A DNA stretch of 46,125 nucleotides from Escherichia coli. GTDB lineage: Bacteria; Pseudomonadota; Gammaproteobacteria; Enterobacterales; Enterobacteriaceae. The position numbers were made by a program, and so were the translations under genes. The stretch is from assembly GCF_965641715.1 (NCBI RefSeq), contig NZ_OZ282456.1; one strand, written 5' to 3'. How positions within the stretch are numbered: position 1 is the first letter of the stretch; each line of letters opens with the position of its first letter. The notes under the pieces are model-generated. The model did no database searches. It worked only from the letters and a program-made list of their open reading frames with translations, and was not told the origin of the DNA. Below, in pieces: positions 1,493-45,810 of this stretch.

Positions 1493-1780
1493 ATGGATAA
1501 AGATACTGTTTTAAAAATGTTGAATCCGGCTTGTTTAAAAAAAGCGGATGAATGGGAATCTCCTACATGTGGAGAAGTTCGGGCAGTCATTGGCCTGACC
1601 GGAATGAGCGGCTCGCAGTTGGCCAAAAAACTAGGCTTAAAAGATAGTCGCAATGTTCGCAATTGGCAGATGTTAAAGGAGTCCACATCCAGATCCAGCA
1701 TTCCGTATGCAGCCTGGGCGCTGCTGTGTTACTTCGCTGGGTTAGGGTTAATCTTCATTGATAACAAAACAGATGTTTGA
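1493..1780 (+). CDS. Hypothetical protein with possible HTH and C-terminal hydrophobic segment
   Basis: ORF-track frame 1481-1780; ATG at 1493 preceded by GGAGATGG; no recognisable family. Confidence 0.3.
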   Translation: MDKDTVLKMLNPACLKKADEWESPTCGEVRAVIGLTGMSGSQLAKKLGLKDSRNVRNWQMLKESTSRSSIPYAAWALLCYFAGLGLIFIDNKTDV

Positions 1781-1803
1781 AACATGCAAATATGAGGTTT
1801 GTT

Positions 1804-2067
1804 ATGGAACTTGTACGCAAAACACGCAAAGAGTTCTTGGACCTGTATCGCATGGGAGCTTTCACTTGTGTTGTGGCTACCCAGGACGAAGTGACAAAAA
1901 GCTGGCGGCTTTTTGCTCTCAATAAAAAAGGGATTGCCGTTTTCATTGAAAAAGCCCGTGGTGGTATCCGCGAATGGGCGGGATTGAATTATGTGGCTGA
2001 TTTTTGCGCAGCTATGGGGATTCGTCGCTGGGAAGTCCATATGCCAGGAGTAAAGTCACAAAAATAG
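1804..2067 (+). CDS. Hypothetical protein
   Basis: ORF-track frame 1777-2067; ATG at 1804 preceded by GAGG; no recognisable family. Confidence 0.3.
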   Translation: MELVRKTRKEFLDLYRMGAFTCVVATQDEVTKSWRLFALNKKGIAVFIEKARGGIREWAGLNYVADFCAAMGIRRWEVHMPGVKSQK

Positions 2068-3003: not shown

Positions 3004-3113
3004 TTATATAATTATAGATTTATATAAAAAGTGCTTTACAGGTGGGAAAAAATTTCCTATGGTTATACCCGAAACCGAGCGATACCCGCCCTGGTTAAAC
3101 CGGAGATAACCCG
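3004..3113 (+). promoter_or_regulatory. Copy A of a triplicated ~110-bp promoter-leader element (AT-rich box, -35 TTTACA at 3035-3040, 17-bp spacer, -10 TATGGT at 3058-3063, leader with GGAG)
   Basis: Near-identical to 12067-12175 and 16786-16895; each copy ends at an ATG. Confidence 0.55.
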
Positions 3114-3494
3114 ATGAGCATGATTAAAATCCGCAAAAACGCTTTCCTTAAAATTCAAACTATCCTGGCTGGTTCTGTTGGCGTGATTTGCCGTTCTTCC
3201 TCAAGCCGCATCGATGACTGCTACGATGATGAGTATCGTGTGTCCTCATGCGATGAGGCTTTAACCTGGCTGAAGGAGAATCAGGAACGTGCCCAGGTAT
3301 ATCTGGAAACAGAGAACGGCAATCAGATGCTGCGTATTAGCGGTCGTTATGGATTTGAAACTACATTCATGGCCTATTTTAATCAGGCTTACTTTGACAA
3401 GGAGTTGGCCTGGTACACTGATCGCATGAGCAAAAGCGAGCCAGCCCCGATTACACCGCCGAACAATAAACCATTTTTATTCCTCGTTAAGTAA
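3114..3494 (+). CDS. Hypothetical protein (driven by promoter-leader copy A)
   Basis: 126-aa ORF directly after the conserved leader and Shine-Dalgarno. Confidence 0.45.
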   Translation: MSMIKIRKNAFLKIQTILAGSVGVICRSSSSRIDDCYDDEYRVSSCDEALTWLKENQERAQVYLETENGNQMLRISGRYGFETTFMAYFNQAYFDKELAWYTDRMSKSEPAPITPPNNKPFLFLVK

Positions 3495-5970: not shown

Positions 5971-6130
5971 TGTGATATCTCCAATATATGGAACTATCAC
6001 CGCCATTCGAGGCTAATCAAATGGTGGTGAGCCGTACAGGGTTAGCCTTACCGGACACAATGACGAACCGGCGCGGATTTCTCCGCCCCTGTACGACCCA
6101 CCATAATTTGGGCGTAACAGTGCTCTACGC

Positions 6131-6157
6131 ATAAAAAAACCGCTAACGCGGTATGCG
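6131..6157 (-). terminator. Candidate intrinsic terminator (minus strand) in the antirepressor leader
   Basis: ACCGC-TAAC-GCGGT hairpin with a 7-A run on the plus strand (T7 on the minus strand). Confidence 0.35.
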
Positions 6158-6298
6158 CCATCGTGTTATTCAGGAGGCTAATCCCGACCGTAGATTTTGC
6201 TACGGCTCGGAAAGTGTCCACCAATGGCGCATTCATGTCAATACGGCGGGATTTTAACAGAGACAACCACATAGCGTGGGTTTATTGGTAGGCAGAAA

Positions 6299-6333: not shown

Positions 6334-6715
6334 GCTGATCGGATTCGCGGTCCTTTCAGCATAACGTCGTTGTGTAAACAACCACGCAAGCACAAGCGGC
6401 GTATCTATTCTTACTCAACTGAGGTGAATAGTCCACTATTCATATAAAGAAATTTAGTTCCTTAGTTCATGCAGAATGAAGTTTTTTAACTTCTTCGGAT
6501 GTAATTACATGTAATAAAAGCAATTGTTATTCCTTCATTATGAAGGCGAGGACGTGTAATATGGCTTGGGGCCTTTTCGCCGATTCGCACCCGGGCACCG
6601 ACTTTAAGGAAAGGATCATCCACTTGCCGTACACGCAAGCACAAGCGGAGTGCTTGCTCTCGCGTCATTTTCGTCGGTGGAGATGCCGTGAAACGGCCTG
6701 TAAGGGCCACACAAT

Positions 6716-6836
6716 GAAAAAATACTGTATGTGTATTTTTATCGTTGTTACTGGAGCTTTGTTTACGCCACATGGGGAGGGTTGGAAGATTACTGATAAC
6801 GCTCTGAATGTGACGATAAACATTAGCAGCAAGTAG
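6716..6836 (+). CDS. Candidate small hydrophobic peptide (40 aa)
   Basis: MKKYCMCIFIVVTGALFTPHGEGWKITDNALNVTINISSK; AAGGG upstream of the ATG; terminator immediately downstream. Confidence 0.2.
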
Positions 6837-6841
6837 CGATT

Positions 6842-6864
6842 AGGCCCCTTCGGGGGCCTTTTTT
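6842..6864 (+). terminator. Rho-independent terminator
   Basis: AGGCCCC-TTCG-GGGGCCT hairpin followed by TTTTTT. Confidence 0.55.
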
Positions 6865-7510: not shown

Positions 7511-7553
7511 GTGTATCCCCTCTTATATAAATCTATAAAACTATAATTATATA

Positions 7554-8222: not shown

Positions 8223-8345
8223 GTGTTTGGTTATATAATTCTATAAATCTATATTTATAGAACGAGGTAAGCATAACCAACTTTTTGGCGGATGGAAAGC
8301 GTTTTATATAATTATATAAATCTATAATCATATAAGCGGGCGTTA
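8223..8345. repeat. AT-rich repeat array upstream of parA; candidate partition site/operator
   Basis: Two copies of TTATATAATT(C/A)TATAAATCTATA at 8231-8260 and 8304-8335. Confidence 0.4.
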
Positions 8346-8824: not shown

Positions 8825-9481
8825 TCATAACCAGTTGACAACACTAACTACGCGGCCCAGAACTTTATAACGCTTAAATTCCTCGTTATTCAGATGCTTA
8901 GTGTTCATTTCAGCATCCCTTTCGGTTGACAGCATAACAGCATTGTCACCCGGTATGACTCTACAGTGCCTCAAAACAACCAGGCCATTTCTGTCTTCAA
9001 GGGCATAGATCCCCTCATGAATCTCTGTATCGTCTGTATTAATCAGGACTTGGGAGCCAGGGGATATTGTTGGTGACATTAACTCATCGTTGCTCTGGAG
9101 AACTGACAGAGACGATGGGTTGATGTTCTTGCTTCGTAGAATCTCCTGTTCTATCGCCAGCACTGGCTTTTCTCCGGCGTGCGATGCTATGTCATTTTTT
9201 ATAGCTACAAGCCCAGGAATAACAGGAGCGTTAGTATTCTGGGGTGGGAACGGGTTATCTGTTAAGCACGCGATATAAGGCGCTGATGCTTTCAGGGCGT
9301 GCGCGATTTTCTTGATGGCAGGTATCGATGGTTGTCTTAATCCGGCCTCATAGTTCTGCAAGGTGCTTAAGCCTATTCCAGTGACTTGCTGGAGATCTCC
9401 GGCAGTCATGCCGGATTGTTTCCGTAGAGTCTGAATGCGCAGACCTATTTCTTTCTTGATGTTCTCGTCGTTGCTTTTCAT
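8825..9481 (-). CDS. CI-like prophage repressor (HTH XRE domain plus S24 LexA-like peptidase domain)
   Basis: N-terminal HTH (LRKQSGMTAGDLQQVTGIGLSTLQNYEAG); C-terminal domain with the layout of self-cleaving CI/LexA repressors. Confidence 0.8.
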   Translation of the reverse strand: MKSNDENIKKEIGLRIQTLRKQSGMTAGDLQQVTGIGLSTLQNYEAGLRQPSIPAIKKIAHALKASAPYIACLTDNPFPPQNTNAPVIPGLVAIKNDIASHAGEKPVLAIEQEILRSKNINPSSLSVLQSNDELMSPTISPGSQVLINTDDTEIHEGIYALEDRNGLVVLRHCRVIPGDNAVMLSTERDAEMNTKHLNNEEFKRYKVLGRVVSVVNWL

Positions 9482-9518: not shown

Positions 9519-9636
9519 ACCACATTTAGTGGTTTTCACATGGTAAGACGAGAGGTGGACCACAAATAGAAGGTTATTTTTTGTTTCGCCCATTGAAAAA
9601 CCCACGATATGTGGTTTTAATACCACATATCGTGGT
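9519..9636. promoter_or_regulatory. Divergent immunity control region with three operators: ACCACATTTAGTGGT (9519-9533), CCACGATATGTGG (9602-9614), ACCACATATCGTGGT (9622-9636)
   Basis: Three copies of the 5-bp inverted repeat ACCAC/GTGGT with 5-bp spacer, plus a half-site at 9558-9566, between divergent repressor and cro-like genes. Confidence 0.55.
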
Positions 9637-9655
9637 TTTAACTGGAGTTCGTTAA

Positions 9656-12006: not shown

Positions 12007-12066
12007 AAGTGTCATTTTGAGCTGTTTTGATGGTGTGTAGACATCGGGAACATCGAAAATCTATAA

Positions 12067-12175
12067 ATATATAATTATAGATTTATATAAAAAGTGCTTT
12101 ACAGGTGGGAAAAAATTTCCTAAGGTTATACCCGAAACCGAGCGATACCCGCCCTGGTTAAACCGGAGAAATCTG
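12067..12175 (+). promoter_or_regulatory. Copy B of the triplicated promoter-leader element
   Basis: About 97 percent identical to 3004-3113 and 16786-16895 over about 100 bp; one base shorter before the ATG. Confidence 0.55.
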
Positions 12176-13243
12176 ATGAATAAACAAGTAATTATTTCTG
12201 ACTGGATCAACAACCCTAACAGCCTGTTAAGCACTGATACTGGCTACCTATTACGCCATGTTAATGGTCGTATGGTCAAAAGCGATGAGCACGAAACCTT
12301 TTTCTTTGTTGAAGACGATGGGCGTATCTATGAGGATGGTTACTCTTATGAAGCCCAAACTGGTTGTATCCCTGCGGAGCTGGTGGACGTAACAGAAGAT
12401 CTGCGCAAAGCATGGCTTGAACAGCAGCAGCGCGGAGATGATTACGTAAACACCTATCAGGAACGCCAGAACGCGCGTCTTGCCCGATATATTGCTCGTG
12501 CAGAAAAAGCCAGAAAAGAAGGTGCGGTAGCGCATAAGCGAGCGCATGACCTGTTGGATGTGATCCCGTTAGGCCAGCCGATTTTAGTTGACCATTATAG
12601 CGCGAAAGGCCATCGCCGCCGTTTGTCTAAAGCTGATGCGTTATTCAGAAAAGCGTTTGTTGAATGCGAAAGTAAAGCATCACACTACGAGAGCAAAGCC
12701 GCAGGTGTTGGTCGTAATGGAATTTCGTCTGATGATCCTGATGCGCTATTTAAGTTGCTTCGTAAGCTGCAAGGCTGCATGAAGTCACACGTCAAAATGA
12801 AGGCCGCAAATAAGGCCATTCGCAAATACAAAAAAGACCAATTACAGCAGCTTTCTGCATTAATCGATCTCAGGTTTACAGAAAGCGAAGCCAAAGAGTT
12901 ACTGGCCGGAGATTTCTGTGGGCACATCGGATTCCCTTCATACGCACTGAGCAACAATAAGGCCGAAATCAAACGACTACAGAGCCGTATTAAGGAGCTT
13001 GAATCGGTCAAGTCTGTAACAGGAGCACAGCGCGAAGAATACGACGGCTTTTCTATGGAGATAGATCCAGAGGATAACCGCATCCTGTTTTATTTCCCTG
13101 GCAAACCAGAGGCAAACATTCGTTCGCTGCTTAAATCACGCGCCTTTAAGTGGAGTCCAACCCGTAATGCATGGGTTCGCAAGATTACTCCAAACGCCCT
13201 GGCTGATGCCCGATATCTGAAAGAATCGCTATTGAAAGCCTGA
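12176..13243 (+). CDS. DUF3560-family protein
   Basis: Segments GQPILVDHYSAKGHRRRLSKADA, ISSDDPDALFKL and MKAANKAIRKYKK match DUF3560 as recalled. Confidence 0.5.
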   Translation: MNKQVIISDWINNPNSLLSTDTGYLLRHVNGRMVKSDEHETFFFVEDDGRIYEDGYSYEAQTGCIPAELVDVTEDLRKAWLEQQQRGDDYVNTYQERQNARLARYIARAEKARKEGAVAHKRAHDLLDVIPLGQPILVDHYSAKGHRRRLSKADALFRKAFVECESKASHYESKAAGVGRNGISSDDPDALFKLLRKLQGCMKSHVKMKAANKAIRKYKKDQLQQLSALIDLRFTESEAKELLAGDFCGHIGFPSYALSNNKAEIKRLQSRIKELESVKSVTGAQREEYDGFSMEIDPEDNRILFYFPGKPEANIRSLLKSRAFKWSPTRNAWVRKITPNALADARYLKESLLKA

Positions 13244-13320
13244 CAGTAAGCCTACGGCGGGATATCTCCCGCCGTATATAGAATTATATATTTATATAAA
13301 TGTATAAGGACGCCTCGACA

Positions 13321-14715: not shown

Positions 14716-15244
14716 GATTTTTAACAGTGTTCTTGGAAAAGAGGGCGGCTATGTGGATCACCCTGACGACAAGGGAGGCCCAACAAAGTGGGGCATTACT
14801 CAGAACACTGCCCGTGCTCATGGATACCGTGGCGATATGCGCGATTTAACTCGCGAACAGGCTCTGGAAATCCTTGAGGCTGATTACTGGTACGGCCCAC
14901 GTTTTGACCAGATAGCAACTCTGTCGCCGGATATTGCCGCAGAACTGTGCGACACGGGCGTCAACATGGGGCCAACAGTGGCGTCAAAAATGCTTCAACG
15001 CTGGCTGAATGTGTTCAACCTGCGTGGGAAGCTGTATCCCGATTTGGATGCAGACGGACGAATCGGTCCACGTACCATTAATGCGCTGCGTGCTTATCTT
15101 GGGAATCGGGGAAAAGACGGCGAACGGGTGATGCTGACGTCGCTGAACTGTACGCAGGGCGAACGCTATCTGGAGTTGGCGGAGAAGCGCGAGGCTAATG
15201 AGTCGTTTGTCTACGGCTGGATGAAAGAGCGAGTGGTGGTATGA
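14702..15244 (+). CDS. Endolysin (GH108-type N-terminal domain with peptidoglycan-binding C-terminal domain)
   Basis: N-terminal signature GKEGGYVDHPDDKGGPTKWGIT typical of GH108 lysozymes. Confidence 0.75.
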   Translation: MTKDEIFNSVLGKEGGYVDHPDDKGGPTKWGITQNTARAHGYRGDMRDLTREQALEILEADYWYGPRFDQIATLSPDIAAELCDTGVNMGPTVASKMLQRWLNVFNLRGKLYPDLDADGRIGPRTINALRAYLGNRGKDGERVMLTSLNCTQGERYLELAEKREANESFVYGWMKERVVV

Positions 15245-15519
15245 CTGGTTTGAAGGCCGTTTTGTCATTTATTGGCACAATTATATTGGTTGCATTTGGC
15301 GCGTTTGGTTTTGGTCGTATGAAGGGGCGAGAAAAGGCCGAAGATGAAGCTGAAAAGCAGCGCATTAATGAGAATGCAGCCGCCGTAAAAGCCACTGCGG
15401 AGCGGCGTATAGAAGTGACAAAAGAGGTGGGGAATGTACAGCAGAGTGTTAACCATATGGCTGATGACGATGTTGATCGCGAGCTGCGGGAGTCGTGGAA
15501 GCGTCCCGGTGGTGGTTGA
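15241..15519 (+). CDS. i-spanin (Rz-like)
   Basis: N-terminal transmembrane helix then charged coiled-coil region; follows the endolysin with overlapping start. Confidence 0.5.
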   Translation: MTGLKAVLSFIGTIILVAFGAFGFGRMKGREKAEDEAEKQRINENAAAVKATAERRIEVTKEVGNVQQSVNHMADDDVDRELRESWKRPGGG

Positions 15520-15643
15520 TACCGCCTGTGATTGGGTAAAGCCCATCTACCTGACTGATCACGACATCGATGTTATGGACCGACAGACAAAGAAAGATAT
15601 TCTGGCTCATAACAGGGCATGGGAAATCAACTGTCCAAAGTAA
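15434..15643 (+). CDS. o-spanin (Rz1-like lipoprotein) overlapping the i-spanin in another frame
   Basis: Lipobox-like LIASC within the signal sequence; overlapped Rz/Rz1-type arrangement. Confidence 0.5.
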   Translation: MYSRVLTIWLMTMLIASCGSRGSVPVVVDTACDWVKPIYLTDHDIDVMDRQTKKDILAHNRAWEINCPK

Positions 15644-15720
15644 TATATATTTCTATAATTATATAAATATATAGTTACAACATTCTATGCGCTTTTCTCA
15701 TGGGCGCACGCATCAACCAT

Positions 15721-15803
15721 GTTTGTCTGATATGCCGCCGCGCCCAAAAATCCTGAATTTATTGGCTGGGATTTTCGTGCGCGGCGCCACACCAGACAAA
15801 CAA
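15721..15803. other. Long multi-tier inverted repeat upstream of the tRNA
   Basis: Outer arms GTTTGTCTG/CAGACAAAC, middle arms GCCGCGC/GCGCGGC, inner arms AAAATCC/GGATTTT. Confidence 0.35.
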
Positions 15804-15812
15804 ATCAAATAT

Positions 15813-15888
15813 GGCCCCTTAGCTCAGTGGTTAGAGCAGGCGACTCATAATCGCACGGTCATCGGTTCAAATCCGGTAGGGGCCACCA
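15813..15888 (+). tRNA. tRNA with CAT anticodon (Met by anticodon; sequence resembles the lysidine-type tRNA-Ile2)
   Basis: Manual cloverleaf: 7-bp acceptor stem GGCCCCT/AGGGGCC, D-arm GCTC-AGTGGTTA-GAGC, anticodon loop CTCATAA, T-loop GGTTCAAATCC, 3' CCA encoded. Confidence 0.8.
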
Positions 15889-16195
15889 ATTCACTCTCAC
15901 ACATAAAGATAAGCGCGGTGGAGTTACTTCTTCGTGCTCATCTTTATGCGTGCCTGGTGCGCATTTCGGGCGAACGTGGGGCTAAGTTACAGGCAGGGCC
16001 TGTTATCCGCAAAGGGGTAAAAGCTGGAGCGGCACGGAACTGTAGCCGTGTTACCAAAACAGCGTTGTCGGGCGATATCCGGCACACAACAGGCAAGGGC
16101 ATTAATCAGTCTGGTTAGTGCCCTTTTCGTTGTGTTTGCTGTAGAGCTGGCCAGCGTTATGACTGCCGGAGATAAGCGCCGGAGGCACAATTAAC

Positions 16196-16783
16196 ATGGA
16201 GGCAATTGCATTGTTTAATCTGATTTATGCAGATCCCCCCTGGGAATACAAAGACAAGTGTAAGGATGGGAATCGTGGAGCTGGTTTTAAGTATCCAACG
16301 ATGAAAGCTGAGGAGATTGCTCGTATTCCTGTCTGGCAGCTTGCTAATCCTGAATCGTGTTTGTTGGCCATGTGGTGGGTTCCGACTCAGCCAGAAGAAG
16401 CGTTGCTGGTGGTTAAAGCATGGGGATTCAGGCTGATGACCATGAAGGGCTTCACATGGAACAAATGTGGTAGCCGACAACCAGATAAGCTGGTGATGGG
16501 GATGGGGCATATGACTCGTGCAAACAGTGAAGATTGCTTGTTTGCGGTAAAAGGCAAACTGCCGACCCGTCTTGATGCGGGGATCATTCAGTCGTTTACA
16601 TCGCCTCGTCTGGAGCATTCTCGGAAGCCTGATGTGGTCCGTGACAAGCTGGTAAAGCTGTTAGGTGATGTTCCTCGTATTGAGCTGTTTGCTCGCGGTG
16701 ATTTACCTGATGGCTGGCATGGCTGGGGCAACCAGTGCAATGGAGGTATCCAGTTGCATGATGCTCTCTGGCAAGTGGCATAG
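16196..16783 (+). CDS. MT-A70-family DNA N6-adenine methyltransferase
   Basis: Catalytic DPPW motif near the N-terminus (IYADPPWEY), size about 195 aa. Confidence 0.75.
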   Translation: MEAIALFNLIYADPPWEYKDKCKDGNRGAGFKYPTMKAEEIARIPVWQLANPESCLLAMWWVPTQPEEALLVVKAWGFRLMTMKGFTWNKCGSRQPDKLVMGMGHMTRANSEDCLFAVKGKLPTRLDAGIIQSFTSPRLEHSRKPDVVRDKLVKLLGDVPRIELFARGDLPDGWHGWGNQCNGGIQLHDALWQVA

Positions 16784-16785
16784 AA

Positions 16786-16895
16786 TTATATAATTATAGA
16801 TTTATATAAAAAGTGCTTTACAGGTGGGAAAAAATTTCCTAAGGTTATACCCGAAACCGAGCGATACCCGCCCTGGTTAAACCGGAGATAACCCG
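16786..16895 (+). promoter_or_regulatory. Copy C of the triplicated promoter-leader element
   Basis: Near-identical to copies A and B; ends at the ATG of 16896. Confidence 0.55.
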
Positions 16896-17165
16896 ATGAA
16901 AGTACAAGACCGTGAAGTAGTAAAAAACCTCCTGCAATACCTGACCTCAAAAAACCTGACGGGCAGCGTTGAGTTCCGTGAAGCGTTAAAACATTTCAAC
17001 GTCACTACGGTTTATCGTTGGGAAAACGAACATTCTGAAAGACCGTATGTGGTGGATGTTTTTGCGCCTGATATTGAGTGCGGTTTTGAGCGTCATTCGT
17101 TCAAGGAGAAACATTCCGCTGATGTTTTTTGTGAGGTTGTATGTGCGGCAGGAGATGATGAGTGA
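16896..17165 (+). CDS. Hypothetical protein (driven by promoter-leader copy C)
   Basis: 89-aa ORF directly after the conserved leader. Confidence 0.4.
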   Translation: MKVQDREVVKNLLQYLTSKNLTGSVEFREALKHFNVTTVYRWENEHSERPYVVDVFAPDIECGFERHSFKEKHSADVFCEVVCAAGDDE

Positions 17166-40746: not shown

Positions 40747-43065
40747 GTGAGTAAATTATTCTTTACGATGACTGACGCCGGGCGTCAGGAGCTGGTTAAT
40801 GCCAACAAAACAGGAACAAATAAAGTTGAGATTGTTTCTGTTGGTTTAGGTAGTAGATATTATGTCACGTCAACTTCACAAACAAATATAACAAACGAAA
40901 TAAAACGACTTACCACAATAGGTGGCAAAGTTGTTTCCCCTGATACAATTCATGTAACAGCGAAGGATGATAGTAAAGATGAGTATGTTGTCCATACAAT
41001 AGGATTGTATACGAATAAGGGTACGTTGTTTGCTGTATACTCACAAGAACAAGCAATAATAAATAAAGCATCATCTACTATCGCTTTAATATCAAGTGAT
41101 ATAGCAATTAAAACTCTTGATACTAAAAATATTACATTTGGTGATATTGAGTTTATTAATCCTCCCGCGACCGAAACTGTTGTTGGGGTGGCAAGGTTTG
41201 CTAATGAACAAGAAATTGATGCAGGTACAGATGATTCCCTTGCTGTTTCAGCAAAGCGGCTTAAGCAAGCCATTGTGAAACATGAGCAATCACGTAATCA
41301 TCCCGATGCAACTTTAACCTCAAAAGGCTTTGTTCAACTTAGCAGCGCCACCAATAGCTCGTCTGAAACGCTTGCTGCGACGCCTAAGGCTGTTAAGGCA
41401 GCATATGACCTGGCTAATGGCAAATACACCGCACAGGACGCTACCACGGCGCGAAAAGGGATTGTTCAGCTCAGTAGCGCCACTAACAGTGATTCGGAAA
41501 CGCTGGCCGCAACACCAAAGGCTGTTAAGGCAGCGTATGATCTTGCGGCCGGAAAGGCTCCGTCCAATCACACGCATTCGTGGGAGCAGATAACAAATGT
41601 GCCTGTAGCTTCACTGACAGTAAGGGGAATCACTCAGCTCAGTAGTGCAACCAACAGCACGTCTGAAACACTGGCCGCGACATCGAAAGCGGTAAAGGTG
41701 GTAATGGATGAAACGAACAAGAAAGCGCCCTTAAACAGTCCTGCGCTGACCGGAACGCCAACAACACCAACTGCGCCAAAAGGTACTAACAATACTCAGA
41801 TCGCAAGCACGGCTTATGTTATGGCTGCGATCGCTGCCCTCGTGGACTCGTCGCCTGACGCACTGAATACGCTGAACGAGCTGGCTGCGGCGTTGGGCAA
41901 CGACCCGAATTTTGCGACCACCATGACTAACGCGCTTGCGGGTAAGCAACCGAAAGATGCCACCCTGACGGCGCTGGCCGGGCTTGCTACTGCGGCAGAC
42001 AAGTTTCCGTATTTTACGGGGAATGATGTCGCCAGCCTGGCAACCCTGACAAAAGTCGGGCGGGATATTCTTGCGAAATCGACCGTTGCTGCCGTTATCG
42101 AATACCTCGGTTTGCAGGAAACGGTAAATCAGGCTTCTGGCGCATTACAGAAAAACCAGAACGGTGCAGATATTCCGAATAAAGATAAATTCATACAAAA
42201 CACAGGGGCCTGTCGTGCATTTAGCGGTCAGACTGATATCGATGGTTCACAAGGTGCATGGTCGACAGTTGCATTTATCTCGTGGCTGGAGAATAACGGA
42301 GCTTTCCGACATCCATACTGGATGTGTAAAGGGTCATGGTCCTATGCCAGAAACAGGGTTATTACGGATACCGGTTGTGGAAATATCTGCCTTGCCGGAG
42401 CCGTGATTGAGGTTATGGGAACCCGCGGCGCAATGACCATACGCGTTACCACGCCGAGCACGTCCAGCGGTGGCGGAATTACTAACGCTCAATTCACTTA
42501 TATTGATCATGGTGATGCTTATGCCCCCGGCTGGCGACGAGACTACAACACGAAAAACCAGCAGCCTGCATTTGCTTTAGGGCAAACAGGAAGCAGGGTT
42601 GCAAATGATAAAGCTGTTGGCTGGAACTGGAATAGCGGTGTTTATGATGCAGATATCAGCGGTGCATCGACATTAATCCTCCACTTCAATATGAATACGG
42701 GGAGCTGCCCTGCTGTACAGTTCCGCGTGAATTACAGGAACGGCGGTATTTTTTATCGTTCAGCGCGTGATGGTTATGGATTTGAGGCTAACTGGTCAGA
42801 GTTTTACACCACGACCCGCAAACCCTCTGCGGGAGATGTTGGTGCATACACGCAGGCAGAATGTAACTCAAGGTTTATTACAGGTATTCGCCTTGGCGGT
42901 CTGTCATCTGTTCAGACATGGAATGGTCCCGGCTGGTCTGACAGGTCAGGTTATGTCGTTACGGGTTCAGTTAACGGAAACCGTGATGAATTAATTGATA
43001 CAACTCAGGCAAGGCCAATTCAGTATTGCATTAATGGGACGTGGTATAACGCGGGGAGTATTTAA
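40747..43065 (+). CDS. Tail fibre protein (constant N-terminal part plus currently expressed variable C-terminal part)
   Basis: 772 aa; three copies of the fibre repeat [19 protein letters not shown]; crossover site inside the coding sequence at 42104-42128. Confidence 0.8.
42104..42128. other. Left inversion crossover site (gix/cix-like) inside the tail-fibre gene
   Basis: ACCTCGGTTTGCAGGAAACGGTAAA; matches the reverse complement of 45158-45182 at 24 of 25 positions. Confidence 0.7.
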
Positions 43066-43067
43066 TT

Positions 43068-43601
43068 ATGATGCACTTAAAAAATATTACTGCTGGCAAC
43101 CCTAAAACAAAAGAGCAATACCAGCTAACGAAACAATTTAACATCAAATGGCTTTATACAGAGGATGGGAAAAACTGGTATGAGGAACAAAAGAACTTTC
43201 AGCCTGATACGTTGAAAATGGTCTATGACCACAACAACGTTATTATTTGTATTGAAAAGGATGTTTCAGCAATTAATCCAGAAGGCGCAAGCGTCGTTGA
43301 GGTTCCTGATATTACAGCAAATCGCCGGGCTGATATTTCTGGTAAATGGATGTTCAAAGATGGCGTAGTGGTAAAGCGAACTTATACCGAGGAAGAGCAG
43401 AGGCAGCAGGCGGAAAATGAAAAGCAAAGCCTGCTACAGCTCGTTAGGGATAAAACCCAGCTATGGGACTCACAGCTACGGCTGGGCATCATTTCCGACG
43501 AGAATAAACAAAAATTAACCGAGTGGATGCTCTATGCGCAGAAAGTCGAATCTACAGACACCTCCAGCCTGCCAGTAACATTTCCCGAACAACCTGAATG
43601 A
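43068..43601 (+). CDS. Tail fibre assembly protein (current orientation)
   Basis: 177 aa; paralogous to the minus-strand 43630-44160 product (shared [13 protein letters not shown] and [12 protein letters not shown] segments). Confidence 0.7.
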
Positions 43602-43629
43602 GACAAGGCCCGATCGCGGGCCTTAATTT

Positions 43630-44160
43630 TTATTCAGGCTTTTGTGGCCATTCAGGATTTGCCGTATCCACACGGCTGACCAGAACACTGTAGCGTTCCC
43701 ATGCTTCCAGTCGTGTGCGTTCCTCGTCTGTTGCCATATTCAGCCTGACAGCGCGTTCCAGCGGCTGGATGACTGATTCAGCTTCGGAAAGCAATGCGGC
43801 CTTTTGTGATTCGCCTTGTTGTTGCTGTTCGTCTGCCGTATAAATCCGTTTAACTACAGCTCCATCCTTAAACATCCACTTTCCTGAATCATCAGCGCGG
43901 CGGTTGGCTGTAATATCAGGAACCTCAACGACGCTAAAACCTTCAGGGTTAAGCGTGGAGGCATCTTTAGTGATGGCGACAATAATATTATTTGCATCGT
44001 AAACAATCTTTATTGTGTCTGGCTGAAAGTTTTTCACTTCCTCATACCAGTTTTTATCGTCTTCGGACCATAACCAGATAACATCAAAATTCTTTGTTAG
44101 CTGATATTGTTCTTTCGTTTTAGGATTTCCAGACTTAATATTTTTTAAATGCTGCATCAT
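43630..44160 (-). CDS. Tail fibre assembly protein (alternative orientation)
   Basis: 176 aa; paralogue of 43068-43601 on the opposite strand. Confidence 0.7.
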
Positions 44161-45156
44161 TTACACCTGTGCGACGTTATACCATGTGCCATTGATGTAT
44201 TTTTGTATTGGCCTGAAGATGGCTTCATCATCGCCATCTACTTCACCAATGATTCTTAATCCGGTAATTGCGTGTCCGGCTTTTTCATAACGACCACCAC
44301 GCGCCATCAATTGAACAACTCGCGTACCCAGGCGAACATCTCTCACATATCTGGAATCAAAATTGCCATAGTTGCCAGGAATAACTTGCGAGCCACAAAG
44401 CCAGTTACCGTTATTGTCCATGTACGCCTGACCATCGGTGCCATTGGCTGTCCTTGAGTTATTAATCATGTAAAAACCAAACTGGTAGTTACCAAGTCCA
44501 CCGACAAAAAATTTGCGTTCTGCATGGTCTTGTCTTAACAAAGCCTGCGCAGAACTTGTTGATACTGCGTTTCTACCAAAAATGACATTCTGGTTTCGCA
44601 TATCAATCCATGAGGTTGAGCCACTATTAATAGCAAACCTGTTTGCATACACCCAGGCGTTAGTTGTTATATCTCCTGTAACATCCAGACCATGCCCCAT
44701 AGTTATGCGGCCAGTTCTGAGATTAAGCGTAAAGGGACGTAGTGGCCCTATATTACCATTTTCCCCCTCATTCTCTCGTGTAGGGATGATATGCAGGCAT
44801 TCTTCAGAACGGCGAAAAATGGCACCAAAAGATGAATTAAATATCCTCAGTGCATTGACTGTCGATATTTTTACTTCACTGCTGAAAAGAGCTTTAACAA
44901 GAACATACAAAGCATCCCATTTAAGATTCATCAGGTCTTTTGTTGTGGTGCTTTGTTTGCTTCTCCATTTGAAATATTCATTGCCGTTGTCGCCTGTCTC
45001 AAACCACATGTATGAATCAGTGTCACCATCGGCATCATTTTTAAATCCAATCTTCGCCCAGTCAGTATTTCGAATCCAGGCAAGGATTGAGTCATTTTCA
45101 AAAGTAAGCCCACCGGACAAAGTATCGCCATTTTTTTGCACGGCGTTACCAGCCCT
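44161..45156 (-). CDS. Alternative tail-fibre C-terminal segment (silent; no own start, would fuse to the constant part after inversion)
   Basis: Open minus-strand frame continues to the crossover site and encodes LGLQETVN there, identical to the plus-strand fibre at the left site. Confidence 0.65.
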   Translation of the reverse strand, partial: RAGNAVQKNGDTLSGGLTFENDSILAWIRNTDWAKIGFKNDADGDTDSYMWFETGDNGNEYFKWRSKQSTTTKDLMNLKWDALYVLVKALFSSEVKISTVNALRIFNSSFGAIFRRSEECLHIIPTRENEGENGNIGPLRPFTLNLRTGRITMGHGLDVTGDITTNAWVYANRFAINSGSTSWIDMRNQNVIFGRNAVSTSSAQALLRQDHAERKFFVGGLGNYQFGFYMINNSRTANGTDGQAYMDNNGNWLCGSQVIPGNYGNFDSRYVRDVRLGTRVVQLMARGGRYEKAGHAITGLRIIGEVDGDDEAIFRPIQKYINGTWYNVAQV

Positions 45157-45157
45157 G

Positions 45158-45182
45158 TTTACCGTTTCCTGTAAACCGAGGT
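45158..45182. other. Right inversion crossover site (gix/cix-like)
   Basis: TTTACCGTTTCCTGTAAACCGAGGT; contains TTCCTGTAAACCGAGGTTTT, resembling the Gin/Cin crossover sequence as recalled. Confidence 0.7.
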
Positions 45183-45255: not shown

Positions 45256-45810
45256 ATGCAATATGGTTATGCGAGGGTGTCAACTTTTGACCAGAATTTG
45301 GAATTACAACTGGAGGCGCTCAGGAGTTTAGGATGTGACCGGATTTTTGAAGATAAAATATCCGGTGCTAAATCAAAACGACCAGGACTTGATAAGCTAC
45401 TTAAGGTGTTACAGCCGGGCGATACGGTTATTGTCTGGAAGCTGGACCGAATGGGGCGTTCTCTGATTCATCTTGTTGATTTACTTAACCATTTTTTATC
45501 AAACAACATTGAGTTTATTTCGATTACGGAAGGGATAAAAATTAGCACTTCAATTGGCCGCTTTGCCTACACGATGCTGAGTGCAGTCGCAGAGATGGAG
45601 CGGGAAAATATGATTGAAAGAACGCGTGCAGGATTGGCGGTGGCAAGGGCTAACGGCAGGATAGGAGGACGCCGCTCAAAATTGGCACCAGAGCAATGGG
45701 AACAGATCGGAAGGCTTATTGCGAATGGTGTTTCACGTAAGCGGATAGCGATTATCTTCGATGTTACCTTATCCACGCTTTACCGCAGGTTTCCGGCTGG
45801 GAATCATTGA
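45256..45810 (+). CDS. Serine recombinase, DNA invertase (Gin/Cin/Hin family)
   Basis: 184 aa; N-terminal YARVSTFDQNLELQ with catalytic Ser context, C-terminal HTH; adjacent to the invertible segment. Confidence 0.85.
   Translation: MQYGYARVSTFDQNLELQLEALRSLGCDRIFEDKISGAKSKRPGLDKLLKVLQPGDTVIVWKLDRMGRSLIHLVDLLNHFLSNNIEFISITEGIKISTSIGRFAYTMLSAVAEMERENMIERTRAGLAVARANGRIGGRRSKLAPEQWEQIGRLIANGVSRKRIAIIFDVTLSTLYRRFPAGNH

Follow-up and report, generated by a model that had tools for sequence, protein, structure and literature searches.

A tRNA gene with anticodon CAU, preceded at a distance of 10 nt by a long imperfect inverted repeat, raises the question of whether the tRNA is an elongator tRNA-Met or a lysidine-modified tRNA-Ile2 that reads the rare codon AUA, and whether the repeat (hairpin hp1 in the following) belongs to the tRNA at all. 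The initial annotation of the locus proposed tRNA-Ile2, and considered the repeat as a possible processing structure or regulatory site. As for the tRNA, this proves to be correct but ordinary. The hairpin is real, is more constrained than that first reading implied, and was mis-assigned to the tRNA.

The stretch of DNA analysed (46,125 bp, referred to as the window) is the E. coli plasmid pRHB38-C13_5 (CP055628.1), reverse-complemented and rotated, and represents a complete ~46-kb myovirus-type phage-plasmid. The family to which it belongs is non-mobilizable, ~47–52 kb in size, and carried by 69 of 5426 complete E. coli genomes. In PLSDB it accounts for 61 plasmids from E. coli, E. albertii, E. 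fergusonii, Salmonella and Klebsiella aerogenes, and the three Yersinia phages vB_YpM_39/41/44 are members as well; it is found in E. coli, Salmonella and Klebsiella from clinical and animal sources, and E. coli ATCC 25922 carries a member (plasmid NZ_CP009073.1). The gene order begins with RepA, a toxin–antitoxin system, an immunity/par region, an early operon and the lysis cassette (two holins, a GH108 endolysin and overlapping spanins), and continues after a 552-bp non-coding tract with an MT-A70 methyltransferase gene, ParB-like proteins, terminase, head genes and a P2-like tail. The features of the non-coding tract are listed in Table 1. At its left border, a 69-residue open reading frame (15434–15643, plus strand) overlaps, in another frame, the 3' end of a 92-residue gene (15241–15519) and has its match in phage mEp390, in the "Rz-like spanin" region. 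It is probably an unannotated o-spanin gene, which places the end of the lysis cassette at 15643.

Table 1. Features in and around the lysis/late junction, with RNA matches elsewhere in the element; positions refer to the window unless another sequence is named.
Feature	Position	Strand	Basis
AT-rich box, 8-bp TATAxxTT-type units, ending in invariant TAGTTACAACATTC	15643–15688	unassigned	conserved in three lineages
Variable spacer with small hairpin (GCGC...GCGC, 15689–15708)	15689–15719	+	sequence; 5/31 sites polymorphic
Hairpin hp1, 34-nt imperfect inverted repeat	15720–15802	unassigned	folding, covariation, single copy
10-nt linker, would-be single-stranded 5' leader of pre-tRNA	15803–15812	+	sequence
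tRNA-Ile2, anticodon CAU, CCA encoded	15813–15888	+	ARAGORN, Rfam, ileX/P1 trnI alignment, RefSeq tRNA-Ile
Hairpin hp2, immediately 3' of the tRNA	15898–15952	+	27-nt arms, 78% complementary
Structured non-coding leader upstream of the MT-A70 gene (16196–16783)	15960–16195	+	terminator scan, compensatory changes
~130-nt cargo-slot element of relatives	L024 1700–1985; L025 1730–1900; L268/L269 ~1700–1850		
C4 antisense RNA	6020–6108	-	Rfam
isrK	6133–6206	-	Rfam
ryfA-like RNA	6567–6864	+	Rfam

Some further observations concern the element as a whole. Compared with the deposited record CP055628.1, a tail-fibre segment of 3.08 kb (42101–45182) has the opposite orientation. With inverted repeats of ~30 bp on either side and an invertase-type recombinase gene (45256–45810) next to it, the segment is a Cin/Hin-like host-range switch. 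Rfam matches above the gathering score to C4 antisense RNA (P1/P7 immI type), isrK and a ryfA-like RNA suggest that this phage-plasmid, although not itself P1-like, has an antisense immunity module in the style of P1. A palindrome at 9598–9639, with 21-bp arms that are 90% complementary and lack a spacer, is situated between a divergent repressor-like gene (8825–9481, minus strand) and the early operon (from 9656), and is likely the immunity operator.

The cloverleaf with CAT anticodon and encoded CCA described initially is confirmed by ARAGORN, which identifies it as the sole tRNA of the window, by Rfam (RF00005, 67 bits; gathering score 29), and by inspection of the sequence, where the fold is canonical. 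The gene was aligned with K-12 ileX, ileY, metT, metU and metZ. Nucleotides 1–42 and the 3' acceptor strand are identical to ileX, and the likeness to tRNA-Ile2 originally noted for the first ~43 nt therefore holds through nucleotide 42 and ends at position 43 (A in place of U). Over its whole length the gene is closest to trnI of phage P1 (72/76 identities, 94.7%), followed by ileX (68/76) and ileY (66/76), and is far from elongator and initiator tRNA-Met, so that the preference for tRNA-Ile2 over tRNA-Met expressed at the outset is borne out. The main identity elements for TilS in E. coli are the pairs C4:G69 and C5:G68 (PMC11947777). Both pairs are present here as in ileX; in their place, the elongator tRNA-Met genes (metT/metU) have U4:A69 and A5:U68, and the initiator tRNA is different along its whole length. 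The anticodon stem-loop is of the Ile2 type and contains the features that we take to be IleRS elements (A73, U12:A23, C29:G41, A37 and A38); A73 and the CCA end are shared with ileX/ileY. The eight differences from ileX are located at positions 43 and 44, in three T-stem pairs (49:65, 50:64 and 51:63) and at position 59 of the T-loop. The T-stem differences are compensatory, with all three pairs maintained, and the one exception to the Ile2-type anticodon arm is a G27.A43 mismatch that replaces G27.U43 of ileX. This mismatch counts against the assignment, and is also found in P1 trnI. Within the family, 3 of 76 tRNA sites are polymorphic.

Annotation records are divided. The RefSeq PGAP label is tRNA-Ile in the E. 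coli plasmids of the family among the matches listed (15 rows) and in four annotation tables, and the P1 record describes trnI as a "tRNA-ile2 (CAT) gene; 89 pct identical to ileX". A Met label is given by ARAGORN and by the GenBank records of the Yersinia phages, from the anticodon alone. In the latter (OR545053–OR545055; L002 and L010 in our set) the gene is labelled tRNA-Met and the flanking genes are all hypothetical; this label is probably a mis-annotation.

Codon usage was compared between the 61 annotated coding sequences of the element and 42 K-12 genes. AUA occurs at 15.05 per 1000 codons (23.8% of Ile codons) in the element and at 2.43 per 1000 (4.2%) in the K-12 sample, a ~6-fold difference (odds ratio 6.3, Fisher p = 3e-32). 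The frequency is highest in the head and tail genes (20.8 per 1000, 31% of Ile codons), with 48 per 1000 in baseplate J, compared with 10.0 (15.2%) in the lysis genes, 7.7 (14.7%) in the block from MT-A70 to terS, and 6.5 (12.1%) in the early operon. Thus, the codon that the tRNA is predicted to read is over-used relative to the host, and most so in the late structural genes, as would be expected for a codon-compensating tRNA. Together with the closest identity to tRNA-Ile2, this supports the proposed role in AUA decoding. The size of the effect should be read with some caution, since AGA (9.6 versus 1.2 per 1000 codons) and AGG (6.6 versus 0.7) are enriched as much as AUA without any tRNA-Arg being encoded by the element, so that the AUA enrichment in part reflects low G+C content (44%, compared with 52% in the K-12 sample).

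We regard the gene as very probably a tRNA-Ile2 of the ileX/P1-trnI type, i.e., a kind of phage tRNA that is known and already annotated. That it is an elongator tRNA-Met, or mainly a recombination target with homology to ileX and not a decoder, is extremely unlikely. A CAU anticodon on its own does read Met, but in its acceptor stem and anticodon arm the gene agrees with ileX and not with metT/metU, and the PGAP label is Ile. The 42-nt identity to ileX could allow rare homologous integration, and of the 70 places found in E. coli genomes one is chromosomal; on the other hand, the element encodes no integrase, its sole recombinase is the small invertase-type enzyme, and the AUA bias provides a rationale for decoding.

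The three-tier inverted repeat reported upstream of the tRNA is likewise real. The 34-nt arms (15720–15753 and 15769–15802) are 85% complementary and enclose a 15-nt loop (15754–15768), and the description in three tiers fits the plus strand, where a 10-bp stem is followed by a 3×3 internal loop, 2+8 bp and ~9 bp. Folded as RNA, hp1 is far more stable than shuffled sequences on either strand (plus strand, -40.3 kcal/mol, z = -6.3, with 0 of 200 shuffles as good; minus strand, -53.5 kcal/mol, z = -8.7). It is confined to the phage-plasmid family, being found nowhere else in the 5426 E. coli genomes, and a covariance-model search detected a single copy per genome and none in the trnI regions of P1 and D6. 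Among 43 Escherichia-type copies (18 distinct sequences), 1 of 83 hp1 sites is polymorphic, compared with 6 of 41 in the spacer and linker that flank hp1 (Fisher p = 0.005).

Diverged homologues were collected from IMG/VR by way of the neighbouring MT-A70 gene (L024 and L025), from PLSDB (the Salmonella plasmids L268 and L269), and from a metagenome scan (L231 and L252, one within-family and one Salmonella-type variant). The resulting seven distinct hp1 sequences represent three lineages that are 72–78% identical to each other and align without gaps. The 34-pair helix is kept in all seven, with 85–89% pairing (84.9% of cells on the plus strand), and seven to eight pairs have changed on both sides (seven on the plus-strand count), such as pair 12 (U-A, C-G or G-C), pair 21 (G-C or A-U) and pair 17 (C-G, C.A or U-A). 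The covariation score is 0.127 compared with 0.061 for shuffled alignments, none of 500 of which scored as high, and whenever the register is slid the pairing collapses. In the S. salamae plasmid L269, three changes in one arm restore a perfect 23-bp stem. The most invariant parts are symmetric boxes, i.e., GTTTG...CAAAC, CTG...CAG and (C)GAAAATCC-N15-GGATTTTCG. From these alignments, selection is seen to maintain the base pairing of hp1.

Searches beyond the family added little. A scan of viral contigs with a longer pattern returned only the 11 contigs already known, and a 14-mer scan gave chance matches, with one relevant contig among the matches listed. Three chance matches only were obtained with species-representative genomes, and BLAST against plasmids and phages revealed no lineages beyond the Escherichia-type, the Salmonella-type and L024. 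Rfam, at gathering as well as permissive thresholds, offered no match to hp1 except chance miRNA-like ones, and no description of the hairpin or the tRNA of this phage-plasmid family was found in a literature search.

Several known classes of element do not fit hp1. An intrinsic terminator is rejected because a T-run is absent on either strand and the terminator scan does not report hp1. In integron attC-type sites (R''(RYYYAAC)...R'(GTTRRRY)) the AAC and GTT face inwards at the base of the stem; in hp1 this geometry is reversed, the arms having GTTTG outermost on the 5' side and CAAAC outermost on the 3' side, and the element contains no integron integrase. A repetitive element of REP or MITE type is contradicted by the absence of hp1 elsewhere in E. 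coli, and a cos or pac site by the position of the terminase genes 7 kb away. A dif/cer-like site was rejected on sequence grounds.

As noted above, hp1 had been suggested as a processing structure or regulatory site for the tRNA. The spacing at this locus is suggestive: hp1 ends 10 nt upstream of the tRNA, there is a U at position -1, and RNase P would presumably cut between 15812 (U-1) and 15813. Because the gap is too short for a promoter, any pre-tRNA made here would carry hp1 or at least its 3' arm. Comparison of the homologues contradicts a dedicated role, however, since the co-occurrence expected for tRNA-linked 5' processing was not seen. In L025, L268 and L269, hp1 is present without a tRNA, and in L024 a CAU tRNA of the same type is located ~320 nt downstream of hp1. 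Conversely, no hp1-like hairpin is found upstream of trnI in P1 and D6, or of ileX and ileY in K-12. That hp1 is dedicated to processing or regulating the tRNA precursor is thus very unlikely, and on these comparisons hp1 is a single-copy cis element of the phage-plasmid backbone, separate from the tRNA and not an accessory to it. The sequence CAAATCA precedes the tRNA both in the window and in L024, so that the 10-nt adjacency looks like a lineage-specific deletion between short repeats.

The sequence directly to the right of hp1 differs between the lineages and constitutes a variable cargo slot. In the relatives, this slot contains a conserved non-coding element of ~130 nt between hp1 and the tRNA position, which gave no Rfam or tRNA call and also occurs, ~88% identical, in Klebsiella phages and in Citrobacter phage phiNP. 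On the 3' side of the tRNA, the stems of hairpin hp2 co-vary in L024 and L025, where they enclose an additional insertion of ~110 nt. In the structured leader that follows, a terminator-like hairpin (16095–16125) precedes a T-run, and its stem co-varies in L024 and L025, while the leader stretches at ~15960–16090 and 16115–16190 are nearly identical in both. The tract comprising hp2 and the leader (15889–16195) folds better on the plus strand (z = -6.3) than on the minus strand (z = -3.3). A rydB-like Rfam match at 16138–16193 is weak and below threshold (28.9 bits; gathering score 50). Judged from this comparative arrangement, the tRNA is cargo in a variable slot between hp1 and the terminator-containing leader.

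To the left, hp1 is accompanied in all lineages by the AT-rich box with its terminal TAGTTACAACATTC, even though the lysis cassette on the left differs, while the spacer in between forms a different small hairpin in each lineage. AT box and hp1 thus make up a conserved module of ~160 bp between the lysis cassette and the MT-A70, packaging and structural genes. The motif of the box also recurs elsewhere. With up to two mismatches, TATATAATTATAGA has 25 overlapping matches in the genome compared with 0.49 expected, at about eight loci (3005, 7540, 8232–8261, 8305–8334, 12060–12081, 13277–13298, 15652–15673 and 16787). The sites at 7540, 8232–8261 and 8305–8334 lie around parA, on both sides, and several plus-strand genes have such a site upstream. 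A 114-bp direct repeat is present in three copies that are 96–99% identical (3004–3117, 12068–12180 and 16786–16899), each with the AT motif at its start and GGAG...ATG of a plus-strand open reading frame at its end, and appears to be a repeated promoter, leader and ribosome-binding-site cassette. Given the recurrence of the motif and its position at the head of the three repeats, the AT box is probably an array of the operator/promoter type, and the dispersed motif looks like an array that a partition protein or a global regulator would bind. Among the small open reading frames, PHROG and Pfam revealed no identifiable box-binding protein and no late regulator of the Q, Lpa or Ogr type. A sigma-70 scan and a promoter scan of our own detected no consensus sigma-70 promoter near the box on either strand, only weak matches (8–9 of 12 positions), among them a promoter-like pair inside the hp1 arms that is an automatic by-product of the repeat.

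Taking together the tRNA identity features, the AUA bias, the conservation and covariation of hp1, its independence from the tRNA and the recurrence of the AT box, the explanation that we favour, by somewhat better than even odds, is that of a tRNA-Ile2 carried as cargo, with hp1 as a backbone component in the leader of a plus-strand transcript controlled by the AT box. Promoter activity of the box, lysidinylation of the tRNA and the molecular role of hp1 enter this scheme as predictions. The AT box would act as an operator/promoter array for a transcript that comprises, in order, the leader with hp1, the cargo slot with the tRNA, the structured leader with its terminator, MT-A70 and the late genes. 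RNase P would remove the hp1-bearing 5' leader from the pre-tRNA and, once the 3' end is processed, C34 would be changed to lysidine (LAU) by TilS of the host; the modified tRNA would be charged by IleRS and then read AUA, which is rare in E. coli and common in the element, especially in the head, tail and baseplate genes. For hp1 itself, a structured RNA element in the plus-strand leader or in read-through lysis mRNA is the specific role that we propose, as a tentative assignment that may well be wrong. It could act in RNA processing or stability, whether as a site of the RNase III type or as a hairpin that protects an RNA end, or alternatively in transcription control ahead of the downstream terminator. 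Since the tRNA follows 10 nt downstream without room for a promoter, save the weak by-product pair in the arms, hp1 cannot strongly block plus-strand transcription. The lack of a consensus sigma-70 promoter near the AT box counts against the proposed transcription start, and symmetric changes in the two arms, which are also expected of a palindromic protein-binding site, count against the leader reading.

A plus-strand leader also leaves a small and unexpected oddity, which is that hp1 pairs better on the minus strand. In addition to the difference in the window, folding as RNA gives -54.9 kcal/mol on the minus strand versus -45.7 on the plus strand for L024, and -46.4 versus -41.8 for L025. 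The difference persists with DNA parameters (-33.8 versus -25.3 kcal/mol), in the RNAalifold consensus (-43.3 versus -32.6 kcal/mol) and in the fraction of paired cells (89.1% versus 84.9%). Eight independent substitutions result in A.C on the plus strand, equivalent to G.U on the minus strand, and one in plus-strand G.U (binomial p = 0.04), a bias that opposes the genome-wide excess of G over C on the plus strand and includes the path from C-G by way of C.A to U-A at pair 17. The three plus-strand A.C positions are at 11, 13 and 27 of the arm. This asymmetry argues for a role in minus-strand RNA or single-stranded DNA and not in a plus-strand leader, and hp1 might accordingly be the stem-loop of a leftward antisense RNA or a single-stranded-DNA hairpin, for example a priming (ssi-type) or recombination signal, in which case the adjacent cargo slot, variable immediately to the right of hp1, would be related to it. 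We consider this doubtful, although it comes closest to the leader among the alternatives. The genes are all on the plus strand for 28 kb to the right of hp1, where the flank differs between lineages and no conserved minus-strand promoter is seen, and no U-run follows hp1 on the minus strand. The asymmetry is based on nine events, the sole within-family variant (L231) favours the plus strand, and G.U pairs on the plus strand are seen in hp2 and in the small hairpin nearby. Furthermore, the box geometry is not that of attC-type sites, and hp1 is 15.7 kb from the repA region, which is unlike typical ssi sites.

The symmetric boxes, which are the most invariant parts of hp1, the nearly frozen primary sequence within the family, and the resemblance of the neighbouring AT-box array to a protein-binding array would also be consistent with a site that a dimeric or multimeric protein binds as double-stranded DNA (an operator, a centromere-like site or a recombination site) and that never forms a hairpin, and symmetric co-variation of half-sites would then mimic compensatory pairs. 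Such a site is nonetheless unlikely. The 34-bp arms, pairing over their full length and seven to eight co-varying pairs exceed the needs of known operators; the likely operator of this genome at 9598–9639 manages with its 21-bp arms and no spacer. The strong excess of A.C over G.T among transition-type changes is unexpected for a duplex site, and there is one hp1 copy per genome. A more far-reaching proposal combines the bottom strand with the AT box: as a single-stranded-DNA or antisense-RNA element, hp1 would, together with one member of the dispersed AT-box array, mark a slot for cargo exchange and/or couple control of the plasmid state to the lysis/late boundary. We rate this as quite unlikely; if true, it would be a kind of cis element not yet described for phage-plasmids. 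The plus-strand leader, with the reservations given above, remains the reading that we prefer for hp1.

With respect to its significance, the tRNA is a further case in which the AUA-rich late genes of a temperate phage or phage-plasmid are covered by a tRNA-Ile2 of its own, and several GenBank phage records mislabel this gene as tRNA-Met. The more useful lead is hp1 with the AT box, a single-copy cis module that is unannotated, under strong constraint and situated where the lysis and late genes meet. Its role could clarify the switch between plasmid maintenance and lytic growth, as well as the sites at which cargo is taken up, whereas little changes if hp1 is an ordinary processing site.

Intercistronic hairpins processed by RNase III are known in phages, as in the T7 R1.1 type and the lambda sib/N-leader. 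By analogy, hp1 has a long irregular stem with internal loops, is positioned between transcription units and lacks a U-tract, and the length of its stem would be compatible with an RNase III site, for which about two turns of dsRNA-like stem are expected; in that case a protective 3' hairpin would be left on the upstream mRNA. Unlike those hairpins, hp1 pairs better on the opposite strand, and it has no Rfam match. In HK022, the antiterminator RNA put is made up of a pair of neighbouring stem-loops that closely follow a promoter and affect, in cis, the terminators further along. A succession of a small hairpin, a large hairpin and a downstream terminator-like site is present here; the shape differs, the promoter is only putative and no Rfam family matches. 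The N15 sop centromere repeats and the RK2 KorB operators are dispersed operator or centromere sites of plasmid-prophages and plasmids. With respect to the AT box only, they may be likened to the short AT-rich dyad or array motif found at about eight loci, clustered around parA and upstream of several operons; the AT motif is unrelated to them in sequence, and hp1 itself is single-copy. As for the tRNA, ileX and ileY, which encode lysidine-modified tRNA-Ile2, have the same acceptor stem including the TilS determinants 4:69 and 5:68. The closest counterpart is trnI of P1, also present in P7, D6 and other P1-like phage-plasmids, and likewise carried by an E. coli phage-plasmid. It shares with the tRNA described here the type of acceptor stem, the anticodon arm, A43/C44 and the T-stem. 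The context differs, in that P1 trnI follows tciA-tciB-tciC and precedes ban, without an upstream hairpin or AT box, whereas the tRNA in the present element is placed between the lysis cassette and the late genes, with flanks that are non-homologous to those of P1 trnI.
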